From the IMG/VR virus record IMGVR_UViG_3300025867_000675: a stretch of 41,247 nucleotides of DNA; one strand, 5' to 3'. Positions 14,604-36,004 of the stretch are shown in pieces. Each line of letters opens with the position of its first letter. Position 1 is the stretch's first letter. Source of the stretch: a virus. The notes beneath the pieces were generated by a model. That model had not been told where the DNA came from and did not search any database. It saw nothing but the letters and a program-made list of their open reading frames with translations. The translations under genes and the position numbers were made by a program.

Positions 14604-14951
14604 ATGAGCAACCAACCTGTACCAGGCCCTGGCTTCCCGAACGGATGGGGTCACCACACAAACACACCAGAGCGCCGCACCCTGACCTGCGTCTATTGCG
14701 GTCAGGAATATCCCAGTGGCACTCCATCGTGTGGAGCAGACGTGAAGGTACTGACTGACCACATCAAGGTCTGCGAGAAGCACCCGATGCGCAAGCTCCA
14801 AGCGGACTATGACGCAGTCCGGAATGCGTTCGCGAAGTTCGTCGAGGATTATGGTAAAGAAAACCTTCAAAAACTTCTTGTGAAGGCGACTACCGAGAAA
14901 TGGGACGAGGACCGCATTGAAGCGATCAAAGTTCTGATCTCTATCTCGTAG
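14604..14951 (+). CDS. hypothetical Cys/His protein
   Basis: ORF track. Confidence 0.55.
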   Translation: MSNQPVPGPGFPNGWGHHTNTPERRTLTCVYCGQEYPSGTPSCGADVKVLTDHIKVCEKHPMRKLQADYDAVRNAFAKFVEDYGKENLQKLLVKATTEKWDEDRIEAIKVLISIS

Positions 14952-14958
14952 TTAGCGC

Positions 14959-20740: not shown

Positions 20741-20994
20741 ACATTGAGGCCGTTGAGGCAGGGTTGCGAGAGCAGATGCGCGGGTTTATCGGACTCAGCG
20801 CCTCTCAGGATACGCTGCGCCATGTTCGCATCATTGTCGACGAGTTCCTCAAGAGACGCCATTCTGGCTACGAGAGTCACTTCGTAGCGGTCGGGATCGA
20901 CACCCTTGACAACACCAAGCTCCACGTCATTCCGCAACCCCACGCACCACCCTGGGTTCACGAGATCTTTGACCGAATCTACGACCTTAGTTAG
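20728..20994 (+). CDS. hypothetical protein
   Basis: ORF track. Confidence 0.55.
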   Translation: MHTINIEAVEAGLREQMRGFIGLSASQDTLRHVRIIVDEFLKRRHSGYESHFVAVGIDTLDNTKLHVIPQPHAPPWVHEIFDRIYDLS

Positions 20995-21434: not shown

Positions 21435-21522
21435 CCTCTTGGTCCTGGCGGGATGCAAGACCAGAGAGCCGGTCCAGACCTACCCGGTCGCGCTCCCTCA
21501 GATCAAGCTGAGCGAACCGTAG
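21400..21522 (+). CDS. small Pro-rich lipoprotein (40 aa), overlapping end of previous gene in a different frame
   Basis: signal peptide + lipobox LVLAGC; spanin-Rz1-like architecture. Confidence 0.4.
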   Translation: MKKLLLVSITFSLLVLAGCKTREPVQTYPVALPQIKLSEP

Positions 21523-21529
21523 TTAGCGC

Positions 21530-31133: not shown

Positions 31134-32515
31134 TTGCAAATCCGTGCAGGTTCGATTCCTGCCGCGTTCGCCATAGTTATGGCATGCCCGCAAAGGACAT
31201 TCTAGCCCAGCTGATTGGAGAGTCGGTCACATACCGGCTTCCCCAATCTAAAAACGTCCTCTTCTACGATTTCTACGTTCTCTCGTACCTTCGCAGCCTG
31301 AACCTCGATCCCACGTCAAAGGACTCCAGGGCGTCATTCTTCGGCGGCGAGGTGAAAGAGGATGTCGATCACGCCGTCCAGGTGCTGGTCCCCTACCTCC
31401 GTCAGAACCTCCTCGACGCTACATTCCTGAGCATCTGCGCTGAGATCCGCCACAGCCTCACTGAGCTTCCTGAGTGGAAGCAGTTGGCCAGGAAAATGCC
31501 AATGATGTTTGACTACGCTCGGAACTATCTTTCCAAGCACGCAGGCATGCTTCGCCATACTGGAGAGCCATACCCGGTCAGAGGGAATTCAAAGAGCTAT
31601 GACGATTCAGTCGTGGCGGCGCTTCGCACGATCAGAGACAGGCAGTCAAGCAAGCGCGAGTTCGTGTTTAATTGCCGCAAGATGTTCGCGTCAGGGGGCT
31701 GGTCGGCTGATTACGGCGGCAGACCGTGGGCCGGCATCTGCGACGCCTGGATTCGCTTGCACGACACCAACCCTGGAGATCCGAGCGCGAACTTCGTCAG
31801 CATCGACCACCTGTTCGATATGCAGCACAACACGGGCACGGTGCTCAACAAGGTGAAGGAGTACGCGATCGACGGAGGATATAGCTGGCTTTCACGCGGT
31901 CTCGACAACAAGGCCAAGGTCTCGTCTATCCGGCTGCTGCTTCCAAACTGCTCAAGCGACATGCAACGTCTAGCGGCGAAAACGCTGAAGACGGGCGGAG
32001 AGCCAGAGATTCAAAAGCCTAAGGACTGGCCAAAGTACTTCCAATACGGAGCAACGCTGTTCAAAGCCGAATCTGCAACGTGCAAAGGTTTTTGGTACAA
32101 GGACGCGACAAGTGAGTGGATCCCACGGTTGTCACCAGAGTCGCTCTTTGACTACGCGAAGAGGCACAACTTTAGGGCGCTTACTCCTAAGGACGTGGCC
32201 GTAAGCTTTCCGTGCGCTATTGGCTACAGCAAGCAGTACACTGGGTATGACGCCAAGAAGGCAAAGTATACCAGCGCCGAAGATGAAGAAGAGCGGCGCG
32301 ATCCTCCGCCTCGCGTCCACGGCCACGCGCATGTAACATTCCTTCACGACGGAAAGACCTATGACCTGGTGTACTCGCACTTCTGCGGCGGGACGCTGAT
32401 CCGGCTTCCGAAAGAGCTCGGTGGAAATTGGGGAACCTACTACAAGGGCGAGATCAAGGACGGAAAAGTGATTCACAGGATCGGCCCAGTTGACTTCAAC
32501 AGCGGGCACAAGTGA
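31130..32515 (+). CDS. large hypothetical protein (461 aa)
   Basis: ORF track; ATGA overlap. Confidence 0.65.
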   Translation: MIANPCRFDSCRVRHSYGMPAKDILAQLIGESVTYRLPQSKNVLFYDFYVLSYLRSLNLDPTSKDSRASFFGGEVKEDVDHAVQVLVPYLRQNLLDATFLSICAEIRHSLTELPEWKQLARKMPMMFDYARNYLSKHAGMLRHTGEPYPVRGNSKSYDDSVVAALRTIRDRQSSKREFVFNCRKMFASGGWSADYGGRPWAGICDAWIRLHDTNPGDPSANFVSIDHLFDMQHNTGTVLNKVKEYAIDGGYSWLSRGLDNKAKVSSIRLLLPNCSSDMQRLAAKTLKTGGEPEIQKPKDWPKYFQYGATLFKAESATCKGFWYKDATSEWIPRLSPESLFDYAKRHNFRALTPKDVAVSFPCAIGYSKQYTGYDAKKAKYTSAEDEEERRDPPPRVHGHAHVTFLHDGKTYDLVYSHFCGGTLIRLPKELGGNWGTYYKGEIKDGKVIHRIGPVDFNSGHK

Positions 32516-32523
32516 TTCTCTAG

Positions 32524-33909
32524 TTGGTGAGAATCTTAGTTTTAGCCATTGCTAGCATCGCGCTCGTCTGCAACGCGTCCACGAACATCGTCATCGACTG
32601 CTCTAAAATTGTCGGCGAGTTCAAACCCCTAAACAGCATCAACGGCGGCATCCTCGTTAAGGATGGCACATACGACCTGACCGAGCCGAGCAAGAAGGCT
32701 GCTTTCCCGATGTTCCGCCTCCACGACTGCGTCTTCGCCTACCACGAGGTGGTTGATGTCCACTGCATCTTCAGAGACTTTAGGAACGACCCGTCGAATC
32801 CGGACAACTACTTCTTTGCGAGGACTGACGATTACCTGCTTCCAATCCTGACCAACGGCTTCAAGGTGGTTTACCGGCTTGGAGAGAGCATCGAGCACAC
32901 TCCCAAGAAGTACTTCATAAACGCGCCTGATCCGCACAAGTGGGCTGAGATCTGCAAGGGAATCATCCGTCACTACAACCACGGCTGGGCTAACGGGTTT
33001 CACTACGGAATCGTCTACTGGGAGATCTGGAGCGAGCCAGAGAACTACCTCAACTGGAAGGGAAGCGATGAGGCGTACTTTCAGCTGTACGACATCGCCT
33101 CAAAGGAGATCAAGAAGGAGTTCCCGTACGTGAAGATAGGCGGTCCGTCAATGGGTAACCCTTGCATTCCTAGAGACAACTACTGGGTCATCCAGTCGTT
33201 CACTGCATCATTTTTGGAATACTGCCGTGCGCGCAGGTCTCCGATCGACTTCTTCTCGTGGCACAACTACTCTAACAGCCCTTACGAAGTCTGCTCAAAG
33301 GCCAAGGTCATCAGAGAGGCGCTGAACAACTACGGATACACCAACTCTGAGTCGCACCTGAATGAGTGGGGCCACCTGCCTGGAAACAGCTGGGAGGGAC
33401 ACATCTCTAAATCTCACAAGGAGGCTCAGAAGTGGTCAGAACGTGTGAACAGCTTCGACGGCGCCGCTTATACAATGGCGGTCATGCTGGATGGCCAGGA
33501 TGCACCAATAGACGCTGCGTTCACCTTCAACTCGGACACCGGAAGATTCGGCATTTACGACCAGTGGGGAACGCCGCGGCCGACGTGGTACGCGCTGCAA
33601 GCCTTCAGCTGGGTGCTGTCTGGCACCAACATCAGGATCAAGACCACAAATCAGGACCGCGTCTCGGTCGGTGCTGGTGTTTCAAAGGATAAGAGTAAAG
33701 TGCAAGTCCTCGTCAGCCACCGCGCCAACCCTGAGAAGCTCTCGCTGAGCGTCACCAACCTGCCGTGGTCTGGGCAGTCTATCGTCGAGGTGTTTGAGGT
33801 GACAGAGGACAGCTTGGCTCCGATCTTCAAGCGCAGCATGGGAAGCGTCTCCGTTCCGCTTACTCTCTCATCCTCATCTGTCGTGCTCATTCGGGTCATG
33901 CCAAAATAG
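32524..33909 (+). CDS. secreted glycoside hydrolase (clan GH-A-like TIM barrel)
   Basis: signal peptide; WEIWSEPE (acid/base-like NEP) and HLNEWG motifs; TTG/GTG start. Confidence 0.65.
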   Translation: MVRILVLAIASIALVCNASTNIVIDCSKIVGEFKPLNSINGGILVKDGTYDLTEPSKKAAFPMFRLHDCVFAYHEVVDVHCIFRDFRNDPSNPDNYFFARTDDYLLPILTNGFKVVYRLGESIEHTPKKYFINAPDPHKWAEICKGIIRHYNHGWANGFHYGIVYWEIWSEPENYLNWKGSDEAYFQLYDIASKEIKKEFPYVKIGGPSMGNPCIPRDNYWVIQSFTASFLEYCRARRSPIDFFSWHNYSNSPYEVCSKAKVIREALNNYGYTNSESHLNEWGHLPGNSWEGHISKSHKEAQKWSERVNSFDGAAYTMAVMLDGQDAPIDAAFTFNSDTGRFGIYDQWGTPRPTWYALQAFSWVLSGTNIRIKTTNQDRVSVGAGVSKDKSKVQVLVSHRANPEKLSLSVTNLPWSGQSIVEVFEVTEDSLAPIFKRSMGSVSVPLTLSSSSVVLIRVMPK

Positions 33910-33957
33910 TTGCAAATAAATGTTTACATTTTTGCGTATCGTGATATAGTGCTCCCA
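33903..33957 (+). promoter_or_regulatory. promoter copy 4 (-35 TTTACA 33923-33928; TGaTATAGT, -10 33945-33950)
   Basis: only copy not followed by an ATG; followed by structured RNA. Confidence 0.75.
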
Positions 33958-33958
33958 T

Positions 33959-34062
33959 CGACGGTGAAAGTAGTCGGGTGACTACACCTGAAAGCATCTC
34001 CGCCCGAAAGGACGGAGGGATGAACTGAGGGAGAGCGGGTTCGAGTCCCGGTATCGTCGTCA
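33959..34062 (+). ncRNA. tRNA-like structured RNA (non-canonical; 7-8-bp acceptor-like stem, 6-bp/4-nt D-like hairpin, GNRA-capped long hairpin, GGTTCGAGTCC T-loop motif)
   Basis: cgacggt(g) pairs with (t)atcgtcg at 3' end; gtagtc-gggt-gactac hairpin; gcgggTTCGAGTcccgg. Confidence 0.4.
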
Positions 34063-34067
34063 TTAAC

Positions 34068-34775
34068 ATGAAACGCTATTACTACGCCATCCTGCACACT
34101 CCGAGTCCTTATATGAAATCGCCTGAGGCGGTTATCATGGACCAGCACCCCATTGACTGGCTGATCGCGCGCAGCAAGCTCGCGCCAGACGAAGAAGCCA
34201 TCCCTCCTGCAGAGGTTGAGTACACTGTCTCATTCTGGTGCGAAGTCACTGAAGAGCAGTTCAAAGCCTGGAACGGCGAGCGCGTCAAGAACATCTTGAA
34301 CCAGATTCCATTTGAGTTCAACACCGGTGAAGTTATTGACCCGCAGGGATGGAGCGACGACCGCTCTCCGTTCACCGTCGTCCACCGCACGCGATACAAG
34401 GATTTTGACGAAGAAGTCGACATCTACTTCCTGTCGTCCAACGCCGCCGAGAACGGCGACGCGTTCAACAACGCGATCCTGAAGCACCGCCGCGAGAAAG
34501 GCACGTTCGAGCTTCTGGACTTGGACGGTCAGTTCGTTTCTCCATCACTCGAGATCTTCGACACATCCATCAAAATCGACTCAAGCGTACGACCCGCGGA
34601 CATGAAAAAACCTGCAGAGGAGAAAGCGATCGACGCGGAAACCGTGGACTTGCACGCCATGTCGAGCGACGACCTGGTCCAGGACTTCGTGGACGAGCTT
34701 GCCAGCGATTCAATTGTCACTAAAAACCGCGCCAACAAAATCCGAGCTGAAATCCTTCGCCGCCTGAAATCCTAA
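34068..34775 (+). CDS. acidic hypothetical protein (start uncertain)
   Basis: ORF track. Confidence 0.55.
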   Translation: MKRYYYAILHTPSPYMKSPEAVIMDQHPIDWLIARSKLAPDEEAIPPAEVEYTVSFWCEVTEEQFKAWNGERVKNILNQIPFEFNTGEVIDPQGWSDDRSPFTVVHRTRYKDFDEEVDIYFLSSNAAENGDAFNNAILKHRREKGTFELLDLDGQFVSPSLEIFDTSIKIDSSVRPADMKKPAEEKAIDAETVDLHAMSSDDLVQDFVDELASDSIVTKNRANKIRAEILRRLKS

Positions 34776-35965: not shown

Positions 35966-36004
35966 GACTGGTCGTAGTTAGGCCATATGAAACTACGATC
36001 AGTC
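35966..36004 (+). other. 14-bp stem-loop with start codon of next gene in its 11-nt loop
   Basis: gactggtcgtagtt / aactacgatcagtc (one G·U); loop aggccatatga. Confidence 0.6.

Follow-up and report, generated by a model that had tools for sequence, protein, structure and literature searches.

An anticodon-less tRNA-like element behind a repeated promoter in a metagenomic phage sequence

A tRNA-like element directly behind promoter copy 4

The virus record IMGVR_UViG_3300025867_000675 (IMG/VR) was analyzed as a single stretch of 41,247 nucleotides, referred to here as the window. All coordinates are window positions, on the + strand unless stated otherwise. At positions 33959 to 34059, the window contains a 101-nt element that is predicted to fold as a cloverleaf with 31 base pairs in all and whose RNA holds no open reading frame (ORF). 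A preliminary description of this DNA had placed a tRNA-like structured RNA directly behind promoter copy 4, and both a match to the Rfam model of selenocysteine tRNA (tRNA-Sec) and simulations of the window bear this out. The features of the site are as follows.

33902 to 33950, + strand: promoter copy 4, with a -35 box TTTACA (33923 to 33928), a 16-nt spacer, and an extended -10, TG-ATATAGT, ending at 33950
33957 to 33958, + strand: 2-nt 5' leader AU with the predicted transcription start A33957, placed from promoter copies 1, 2, and 5
33959 to 33966, + strand: 5' strand of the acceptor stem, CGACGGUG, pairing with 34052 to 34059 and aligning to the tRNA-Sec acceptor
33967 to 33969, + strand: AAA linker from acceptor to D stem, 3 nt versus 2 in tRNAs
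33970 to 33985, + strand: D arm of the tRNA-Sec or allo-tRNA type, a 6-bp stem (GUAGUC/GACUAC) with a 4-nt loop, GGGU, whose GG resembles G18-G19
33987 to 34030, + strand: central arm in the anticodon-arm position, a 44-nt rod with a GAAA cap when folded alone
34031 to 34035, + strand: GAGAG connector, short and variable-loop-like, whose last G lies opposite G34051 as a G-G mismatch
34036 to 34050, + strand: T arm, 4 Watson-Crick base pairs (CGGG/CCCG) with a 7-nt loop, UUCGAGU, aligning to the tRNA-Sec T arm
34052 to 34059, + strand: acceptor-stem 3' strand, UAUCGUCG, with a single unpaired G (34051) between it and the T stem
34060 to 34067, + strand: U34060 at the discriminator position and the trailer CAUUAAC, as read from the sequence
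34068 to 34775, + strand: first gene behind the element, encoding a 235-amino-acid (aa) orphan protein (gene calls on six public contigs)

The three tRNA-like parts named in the preliminary description were all recovered. The acceptor-like stem with G-U pairs, said to stand before TCA, is formed by CGACGGTG (33959 to 33966) and TATCGTCG (34052 to 34059); it comprises 8 bp, two of them G-U, with TCA directly after. The D arm of Sec type (gtagtc-gggt-gactac, a 6-bp stem with a 4-nt loop) aligned to the tRNA-Sec D arm of the Rfam model with high posterior probability. The T-loop motif is present as the full consensus, GGTTCGAGTCC, at 34038 to 34048; the loop holds every conserved position (G53, U54, U55, C56, R57, A58, and C61), and the whole T arm, G-G mismatch included, spans 34035 to 34051. 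Across acceptor, D, and T stems, all 18 base pairs are intact, with zero mismatches. The arrangement of acceptor and T stem can be read either as "8/4 plus bulge" or as "8/5 with mismatch," the fifth T-stem position being the G-G. After the acceptor stem the 3' end reads UCA; a CCA is not encoded.

The center of the element departs from tRNA. Its arm begins with three base pairs, CCU/AGG (33987 to 33989 with 34028 to 34030), followed by a 5-by-5 internal loop (GAAAG/AACUG) and then by a hairpin of about 10 bp (33995 to 34022) with a C-A mismatch, a GG bulge, and a GAAA cap at 34006 to 34009. A GNRA-capped hairpin had been described earlier at 33997 to 34018; the hairpin is there, but it is slightly longer than proposed and is closed below by the CCT/AGG pairs. 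Its sequence occurs only once across the window and all fetched loci.

Searches with tRNA and RNA family models

With default settings, ARAGORN found neither a tRNA nor a transfer-messenger RNA (tmRNA) anywhere in the window. The relaxed, intron, and mitochondrial modes returned only implausible models with broken stems, a Leu(gag) whose "intron" would be 25 nt long and a Ser(gga), and a decoding tRNA was rejected. Drawing the central hairpin by hand as an archaeal-type intron or as a variable arm gave neither a 7-nt loop with U33 nor a 5-bp anticodon stem. No 7-nt anticodon loop with U33 can be drawn at all; the central region is a single rod instead of an anticodon arm plus a variable arm.

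In Rfam scans at gathering thresholds, there was no match anywhere in the window. Permissive scans aligned the element to tRNA-Sec (RF01852) at 23.4 bits, below the gathering score of 47, with an E value of 0.017 on 301 nt and of 2.3 on the whole window with all 4,227 families counted. The alignment spans the acceptor, D, and T arms and passes over the anticodon and variable arms as a 37-nt insert. This was the sole Rfam match at an E value of ≤10 in the whole 41-kb window; besides it, the E-value scans gave HgcC and the S15 leader at noise level only. Of the checks proposed in the preliminary description, relaxed ARAGORN yielded only implausible models and the covariance scan yielded a subthreshold tRNA-Sec. 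The absence of a canonical 7-nt anticodon loop, also noted there, is agreed upon by the ARAGORN modes, the Rfam insert, and folding. The suggestion of a noncanonical or long-variable-arm tRNA that decodes does not survive: there is no anticodon loop, and the center is a single GNRA-capped rod.

Nonrandomness and folding

To put a number on the resemblance, we generated 1,000 first-order Markov simulations of the window and counted the sites at which three parts came together in tRNA geometry: an acceptor of 8 bp, a D hairpin of 6 bp, and a TTCRA loop on a T stem of 4 bp. This composite occurred 0.01 times per simulated window, or 0.002 times when GG was also demanded in the D loop. In the real window, a single site fits, 33959 to 34059, and it falls in the only long promoter-proximal noncoding gap of the window. 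The T-arm pattern GGTTCRANTCC has two sites in the window versus 0.19 expected. The tRNA resemblance is more than chance.

Energy calculations lend the cloverleaf modest support. It is predicted at -37.6 kcal/mol, compared with -38.7 kcal/mol for the unconstrained minimum free energy (MFE) structure, a gap of 1.1 kcal/mol. Folded alone, the D arm reaches -6.1 kcal/mol (z = -3.6) and the central arm reaches -14.1 kcal/mol (z = -2.05).

Promoter context and transcript start

Promoter copy 4 belongs to a module of about 45 nt that is present in five + strand copies in the window (at 5197, 23034, 28327, 33902, and 39038). The module has the layout AAAATAGTTGCAAATAAATGTTTACA-N13-TGATATAGT, in which TGATATAGT is the extended -10; upstream of the -35 and -10 of copy 4 lies a conserved block, AAAATAGTTGCAAATAAATG. 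A sigma-70 scan classed the promoter as sigma-70-like, with 10 of 12 positions matching and the TG present.

The seventh base past the -10 hexamer TATAGT is the A of an ATG in copies 1, 2, and 5, and in copy 3 the ATG lies within three further bases; four of the five copies have an ATG at, or no more than 3 nt from, the predicted start site. In copy 4, the seventh base is A33957, 2 nt ahead of the acceptor stem. The hexamer ends at 33950, and the next ATG, at 34068, is 118 nt on. Copy 4 is thus the only one without an abutting ATG, as had been observed in the preliminary description. Related phage contigs from digesters carry the module as well (L007, L011, L012, and L022 to L035 in our collection), most copies again with an ATG at the start site. 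Because the ATG sits at the predicted start in most copies, the module appears to launch leaderless mRNAs. The genes of the window, internal ones included, mostly lack Shine-Dalgarno sequences.

One relative (L027/L012) has ACG in place of ATG and a 50-nt A-rich leader before a capsid-like gene. Separately, we considered whether the promoter-proximal gene starts reading "ATGAACGAC" might be homologous to the 5' strand of the acceptor and found this unconvincing.

Distribution of the element and other tRNA-like sequences

A covariance model built from the single element sequence was searched against the window, its relatives, and the other fetched loci; no second copy was found in the window, in the promoter-sharing relatives, or in any other fetched locus. 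Sequence patterns combining D arm with T loop, or T arm with acceptor, retrieved nothing relevant from IMG/VR and the GTDB genomes. None of the related phage contigs of the same digesters that were recovered by a promoter-pattern search carries the element. Homologues of the 443-aa gene of the window sit in unrelated T4-like jumbo phage contexts, and the element is not there.

One related contig, Ga0116171_10000596 (L024), has a canonical tRNA at 5377 to 5448 (- strand). Its anticodon, CUA, makes it an amber suppressor, its CCA is encoded, and it reaches 64 bits with the Rfam tRNA model. This tRNA is embedded in an operon, with the next ATG 22 nt away; excision of a tRNA from an mRNA is therefore already required in this phage group. 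When TAG, TGA, or TAA was treated as a sense codon across the window, the result was not clearly better than under the standard code, and reassignment of TAG was not clearly indicated.

A second tRNA-derived fragment was found in the window itself, 2.8 kb upstream of the element, where a gap of 50 nt (31134 to 31183, + strand) divides a 70-aa ORF from the 443-aa gene. Positions 31146 to 31173 contain a perfect T arm, GCAGG-TTCGATT-CCTGC, followed by CGCGTTC, G, and CCA, which correspond to the acceptor 3' strand, discriminator, and CCA. Ahead of the fragment stands TTGCAAA, similar to the anticodon loop of a Cys tRNA; the fragment has neither a variable loop nor a 5' half. Judged by its sequence, it looks like an attP-type core or the remnant of a tRNA gene; no integrase was recognized near it.

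The D-stem/T-loop pattern also found unannotated regions in metagenome-assembled genomes (MAGs) of Clostridia/Eubacteriales (L036, 6957 to 7034, and L038, 268 to 345, both - strand). These regions have a GUAGUC-AAAA-GACUAC hairpin, then a T arm, GUGGG-UUCGAGU-CCCGC, and then GCUUCGA-CCA; some 190 nt upstream, GUCGAA might serve as the 5' partner. No tRNA or tmRNA is called in them by ARAGORN. They could represent a small tmRNA-like or tRNA-like RNA and are unrelated to the phage element.

Comparison with known tRNA-like RNAs

By definition, tRNA-Sec's D arm has a 6-bp stem and a 4-nt loop (PMC7609411), as does the arm at 33970 to 33985. The "8/4 plus bulge" class comprises minor tRNA-Sec and selC* species, and irregular tRNA-Sec-like allo-tRNAs (8/4, tetraloop D arm, and U73) are processed in Escherichia coli (Mukai et al. 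2017, PMC5389517). Some allo-tRNAs are phage-borne and some are apparently nontranslational, and inactive and pseudogene ones are documented (PMC5389517). With tRNA-Sec (RF01852) and the allo-tRNA/selC* group, the element shares the 8-bp acceptor, the tetraloop D arm with its 6-bp stem, and the canonical T loop. Bacterial tRNA-Sec has an acceptor/T domain of 13 bp (8/5); in the element, 8 acceptor pairs stand with four Watson-Crick T-stem pairs and the G-G position, which equals the "8/4 plus bulge" of the minor species. Allo-tRNAs and selC* tRNA-Cys are defined by an 8/4 or 9/3 acceptor branch, a long tetraloop D stem, and G73 or U73 (Mukai et al. 2017). The features typical of allo-tRNA and selC* are found in the 8/4 branch with its unpaired G34051, the 6-bp/4-nt D arm, and the discriminator U34060; a U at this position is shared with selC* and some allo-tRNAs, whereas tRNA-Sec has G73. 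The allo-tRNA/selC* group was first found as subthreshold matches of the tRNA-Sec model (PMC5389517), and the element resembles allo-tRNAs in this respect too.

The differences concern decoding. tRNA-Sec has a 7-nt loop with a UCA (or other) anticodon and a separate long variable arm, and the element has neither these nor any other anticodon loop; an anticodon loop as in decoding allo-tRNAs and selC* cannot be drawn either. One GAAA-capped 44-nt rod replaces both the anticodon loop and the long variable arm. The 3-nt linker between acceptor and D stem and the score of 23.4 bits against a gathering score of 47 also set the element apart. The parts of the canonical tRNA elbow are nevertheless in place, namely, a GTTCRANNC T loop (within GGTTCGAGTCC) and a GG in the D loop (GGGU).

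A different point of comparison is the yjdF riboswitch, a tRNA-derived four-helix leader with a purine-rich acceptor-D junction and an elbow made by its D-loop GG and T loop (Trachman et al. 2022, PMC9142559). Elbow formation activates translation in yjdF, whose expression platform has the T-loop arm pairing with the ribosome-binding site. When authentic tRNAs were grafted ahead of an ORF, in vitro translation rose 2- to 6.3-fold; the engineered cis-tRNA constructs stood upstream of an enhancer plus a Shine-Dalgarno sequence (PMC9142559). Like these leaders, the element has a four-helix junction derived from tRNA and a predicted place in an mRNA leader, right before the start codon, with a D-loop GG, an elbow-capable T loop, and a purine-rich junction between helices 1 and 2 (AAA in the element). 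Unlike yjdF, it shows no match to the yjdF sequence or model (none at an E value of ≤10), no Shine-Dalgarno sequence and hence no pairing of one with the T loop, no T-loop complementarity to the start region upon inspection, and no evident ligand pocket. A further difference is that its acceptor, a perfect helix of pre-tRNA type, starts at the predicted 5' end of the transcript.

YrlA (PMC4201824) and the tRNA-like domain of tmRNA resemble the element as nondecoding mimics of the tRNA acceptor, T arm, and D arm, and phages, too, carry RNAs of the YrlA type. Compared with the element, YrlA has a circularly permuted tRNA-like module: its ends lie in the "anticodon" stem, its acceptor is closed by a loop, a Ro60-binding stem is attached, and a Ro60 gene (rsr) lies alongside. 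The element has tRNA topology with its ends in the acceptor stem, and no Ro60-like gene was found among the scanned ORFs. In tmRNA, the 5' and 3' ends build the tRNA-like domain, a tag-peptide ORF lies in the large mRNA-like insert, there are pseudoknots, and a D stem is lacking; the element is a 101-nt RNA without an ORF, and the ARAGORN tmRNA search was empty. Neither the YrlA nor the tmRNA family of Rfam was matched.

Phage small RNAs with tRNA-like acceptor or T features that are matured by host RNase P include the stable RNAs of phage T4 (species 1 and 2) and the P1/P7 C4 RNA precursor. Their architecture is unlike that of the element, they have no sequence kinship with it, and they are not operon leaders at a start site. 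Closer in arrangement are tRNA punctuation and related processing signals, such as those of mitochondrial polycistrons, the t-elements of plant mitochondria, and the mascRNA of MALAT1, in which a tRNA-shaped element stands beside an mRNA end. In such systems, cuts by RNase P and RNase Z define the flanking mRNA ends, and the resulting mitochondrial mRNAs are leaderless or nearly so. The structural prerequisites of a signal of this kind (the acceptor/T stack and the elbow parts) are present in the element. These systems are organellar or eukaryotic, whereas the phage element lies at the extreme 5' end of a bacterial-virus transcript and its cleavage is only predicted.

Proposed processing and alternative explanations

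What the element keeps of a tRNA is the coaxial stack of acceptor and T stem, together with the parts of the elbow between D loop and T loop; by these features a tRNA is recognized by the ribosome, by RNase P and RNase Z, and by the CCA-adding enzyme. The reading that we favor, and to which we give about even weight, is that the element is a tRNA-derived, anticodon-less, nondecoding tRNA mimic that is excised by the tRNA-processing enzymes of the host. Because a GAAA-capped rod stands in for the anticodon arm, the element is predicted to be unable to read codons. Acceptor, D, and T stems have 18 pairs and no mismatch among them, and the changed arm is a clean GNRA-capped helix; an intact upper body in which only the decoding arm was remodeled fits selection on that upper body better than it fits random decay.

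We infer transcription, folding in vivo, processing, and a role for the released RNA along the following lines. Transcription from the strong, repeated promoter would make the element the leading ~100 nt of a phage operon, and its D and T loops could form an elbow. Since the acceptor/T stack and elbow are what RNase P, RNase Z, and the CCA-adding enzyme recognize, the host may handle the element as a pre-tRNA. RNase P would take off the 2-nt AU leader before C33959, and a 3' endonuclease (RNase Z) would cut at or just past U34060, with CCA addition possible afterwards. The product would be a stable, tRNA-shaped RNA of about 102 to 105 nt. By the same cut, the leader of the 34068 mRNA would be trimmed to ≤7 nt in the style of tRNA punctuation, bringing this gene near the leaderless format of the other promoter-proximal genes.

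Several observations weigh against this account. The main weakness of the functional claim is that it concerns a single sequence without relatives: six other public contigs carry the element, but all seven copies are 100% identical, as are their flanks over several kilobases, and a homologue search of IMG/VR, JGI metagenomes, GTDB genomes, and ~50 related loci found none. The Rfam score is half of the gathering threshold. No CCA is encoded in the element, whereas the tRNA(CUA) of the related contig encodes one. For an RNase P substrate, it is atypical to have a leader of just 2 nt, a linker of 3 nt from acceptor to D stem, and a G-G where the T stem begins, and a 7-nt mRNA leader is not truly leaderless. 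When 80 nt of downstream mRNA are appended, the MFE structure is no longer the cloverleaf, and the folding z-score of the element is weak, at -1.7 to -2.2. Weak folding z-scores are nothing unusual for tRNAs.

Alternatively, the tRNA-shaped fold may stay on the mRNA and act in cis, boosting the Shine-Dalgarno-less 34068 gene via the ribosome, either as a natural constitutive counterpart of yjdF or as a "cis-tRNA" that recruits ribosomes; a variant would merely protect the 5' end from decay. An AUG only 8 nt away, the lack of a terminator and of a Shine-Dalgarno sequence, and the general lack of the latter in genes of this phage suit such a leader, as do the precedents of yjdF and the grafted tRNAs (PMC9142559), with which the element shares the purine linker AAA and the D-loop GG. 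We nonetheless consider it rather unlikely. The T loop is not complementary to the start region, hence there is no switch, and yjdF is not matched in Rfam even at permissive E values. From ribosome geometry, a tRNA body bound to the ribosome could probably not set the AUG in the P site over a tether of 8 nt, and the published cis-tRNA constructs had an enhancer and a Shine-Dalgarno sequence downstream. Moreover, an intact acceptor and elbow normally draw RNase P and RNase Z, and the mRNA would lose the element through their cuts. A second alternative, which we judge unlikely, is a decaying tRNA gene, probably allo-tRNA/selC*-like, that lost its anticodon arm by deletion or rearrangement and is transcribed through without function. 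The fragment at 31146 to 31173 demonstrates that tRNA debris exists in this genome, the promoter-sharing related phages lack the element, the CCA is absent, the score is subthreshold, and inactive and pseudogene allo-tRNAs are on record (PMC5389517). Random loss should strike all arms, however, and here the 18 acceptor, D, and T pairs are intact, each conserved T-loop base is kept, and the altered arm is well formed and GNRA capped instead of eroded; in addition, a full promoter copy is predicted to start transcription 2 nt before the acceptor.

A third alternative is a decoy acting in trans, in which the released anticodon-less tRNA body would titrate a host factor that binds the acceptor or elbow. 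Candidate targets are a tRNA-directed antiphage nuclease, a toxin that modifies tRNA 3' ends, or an enzyme of tRNA processing, maturation, or modification. Phage tRNAs are known to counter tRNA-cleaving defenses, and the retention of the upper body with loss of the decoding part, the strong phage promoter in front, and the lineage-specific occurrence amid accessory genes would all be in keeping with a decoy. Most known tRNA-directed defense nucleases cut the anticodon loop, though, which the element lacks, and no partner gene was identified in the window; we regard this role as quite improbable. Least credible is a chance resemblance in an ordinary 5' untranslated region, which we consider highly implausible: the score under the Rfam gathering threshold, the whole-window E value of 2.3, and the weak z-scores would allow it, but the composite geometry is expected only 0.002 to 0.01 times per window and the T-loop consensus 0.19 times, and the match lands exactly in the sole long promoter-proximal noncoding gap.

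Implications

RNAs that derive from tRNA and do not decode are already known; the anticodon-less, Sec-type form heading a phage operon is new. The subject is topical on two counts, as phage tRNAs are set against tRNA-cleaving immunity and tRNA-shaped leaders have lately been shown to raise translation. The element offers a natural test case for roles of the tRNA body beyond decoding, for the making of mRNA 5' ends in hosts with little Shine-Dalgarno-dependent initiation, and for the evolution of irregular Sec-like tRNAs into noncoding RNAs. A decoy, if true, would be an RNA-based device for counterdefense or host takeover of an undescribed kind. With one sequence and no relatives found, the value of the case is limited for now.

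Downstream gene, neighborhood, and host

We infer that the 34068 gene is cotranscribed with the element; neither a Shine-Dalgarno sequence before the gene nor a terminator-like site on the + strand between the two was found. A search of 5.8 billion sequences and a full HMMER search each returned no match for its 235-aa product other than the protein itself, and it gave no match in Pfam, PHROG, or the PDB. The predicted structure is unusable (predicted local distance difference test [pLDDT] score of 40). The minus-strand ORFs that overlap the element had no family match.

The window as a whole is a phage-like array of small + strand genes, mostly orphans, and its source is anaerobic-digester metagenomes. 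The surroundings of the element are accessory genes, namely, the orphan gene, a patatin-like phospholipase gene, and the following gene.

32524 to 33909, + strand: GH39-family glycoside hydrolase, immediately upstream of promoter copy 4

The closest relatives of the GH39 protein are cellular only, from MAGs of Verrucomicrobia/Planctomycetes, at 40 to 45% identity. Because these relatives are cellular enzymes of that lineage, the sequence comparison suggests a host from the Verrucomicrobia/Planctomycetes group and acquisition of the GH39 gene from the host.

Public contigs with genes of the window reach up to 222 kb, and the phage is therefore probably a large one with nucleotide-metabolism genes. 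Contig L040, which continues the contig of the window itself, encodes a dihydrofolate reductase, a thioredoxin, an Rv2179c-like exonuclease, and a 1,410-aa protein. A contig of the same digester sample, Ga0116171_10000284 (L044; region noted, 7723 to 8058, + strand), was reached via a homologue 49% identical to the 443-aa protein of the window; its genes encode a YEATS-domain protein, an AAA ATPase, a thymidylate synthase, and an amidoligase. Strain-level variability (contigs L003, L004, and L041) sets in at about 34856, shortly past the 235-aa gene: contig L003 diverges completely past 34855, two assemblies break at about 34.9 to 35.0 kb, and L041 differs further downstream in its content of small genes.

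One protein of the window (2382 to 3722, + strand) has matches to the Pfam families MVP_shoulder, Vault_3, and Band_7. Residues 78 to 358 of this protein align with residues 466 to 760 of the eukaryotic major vault protein in the PDB (E = 2e-17); such a vault-protein-like gene is unusual for a phage. A tie between this gene and the element, by analogy with vault RNA, was set aside, the two being 31 kb apart with nothing supporting a link.

Finally, the motif CGTAGTTAG has three exact + strand sites (14947 to 14955, 21518 to 21526, and 35973 to 35981) and a near-match at 20986 to 20994. Each exact site lies 3 to 5 nt ahead of a gene ATG (14959, 21530, and 35987), and at 14947 and 21518 the TAG of the motif is the stop codon of the upstream ORF. 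With one mismatch allowed, there are nine sites versus 4.3 expected. The motif may be a coupling or reinitiation signal, or a second regulatory signal.

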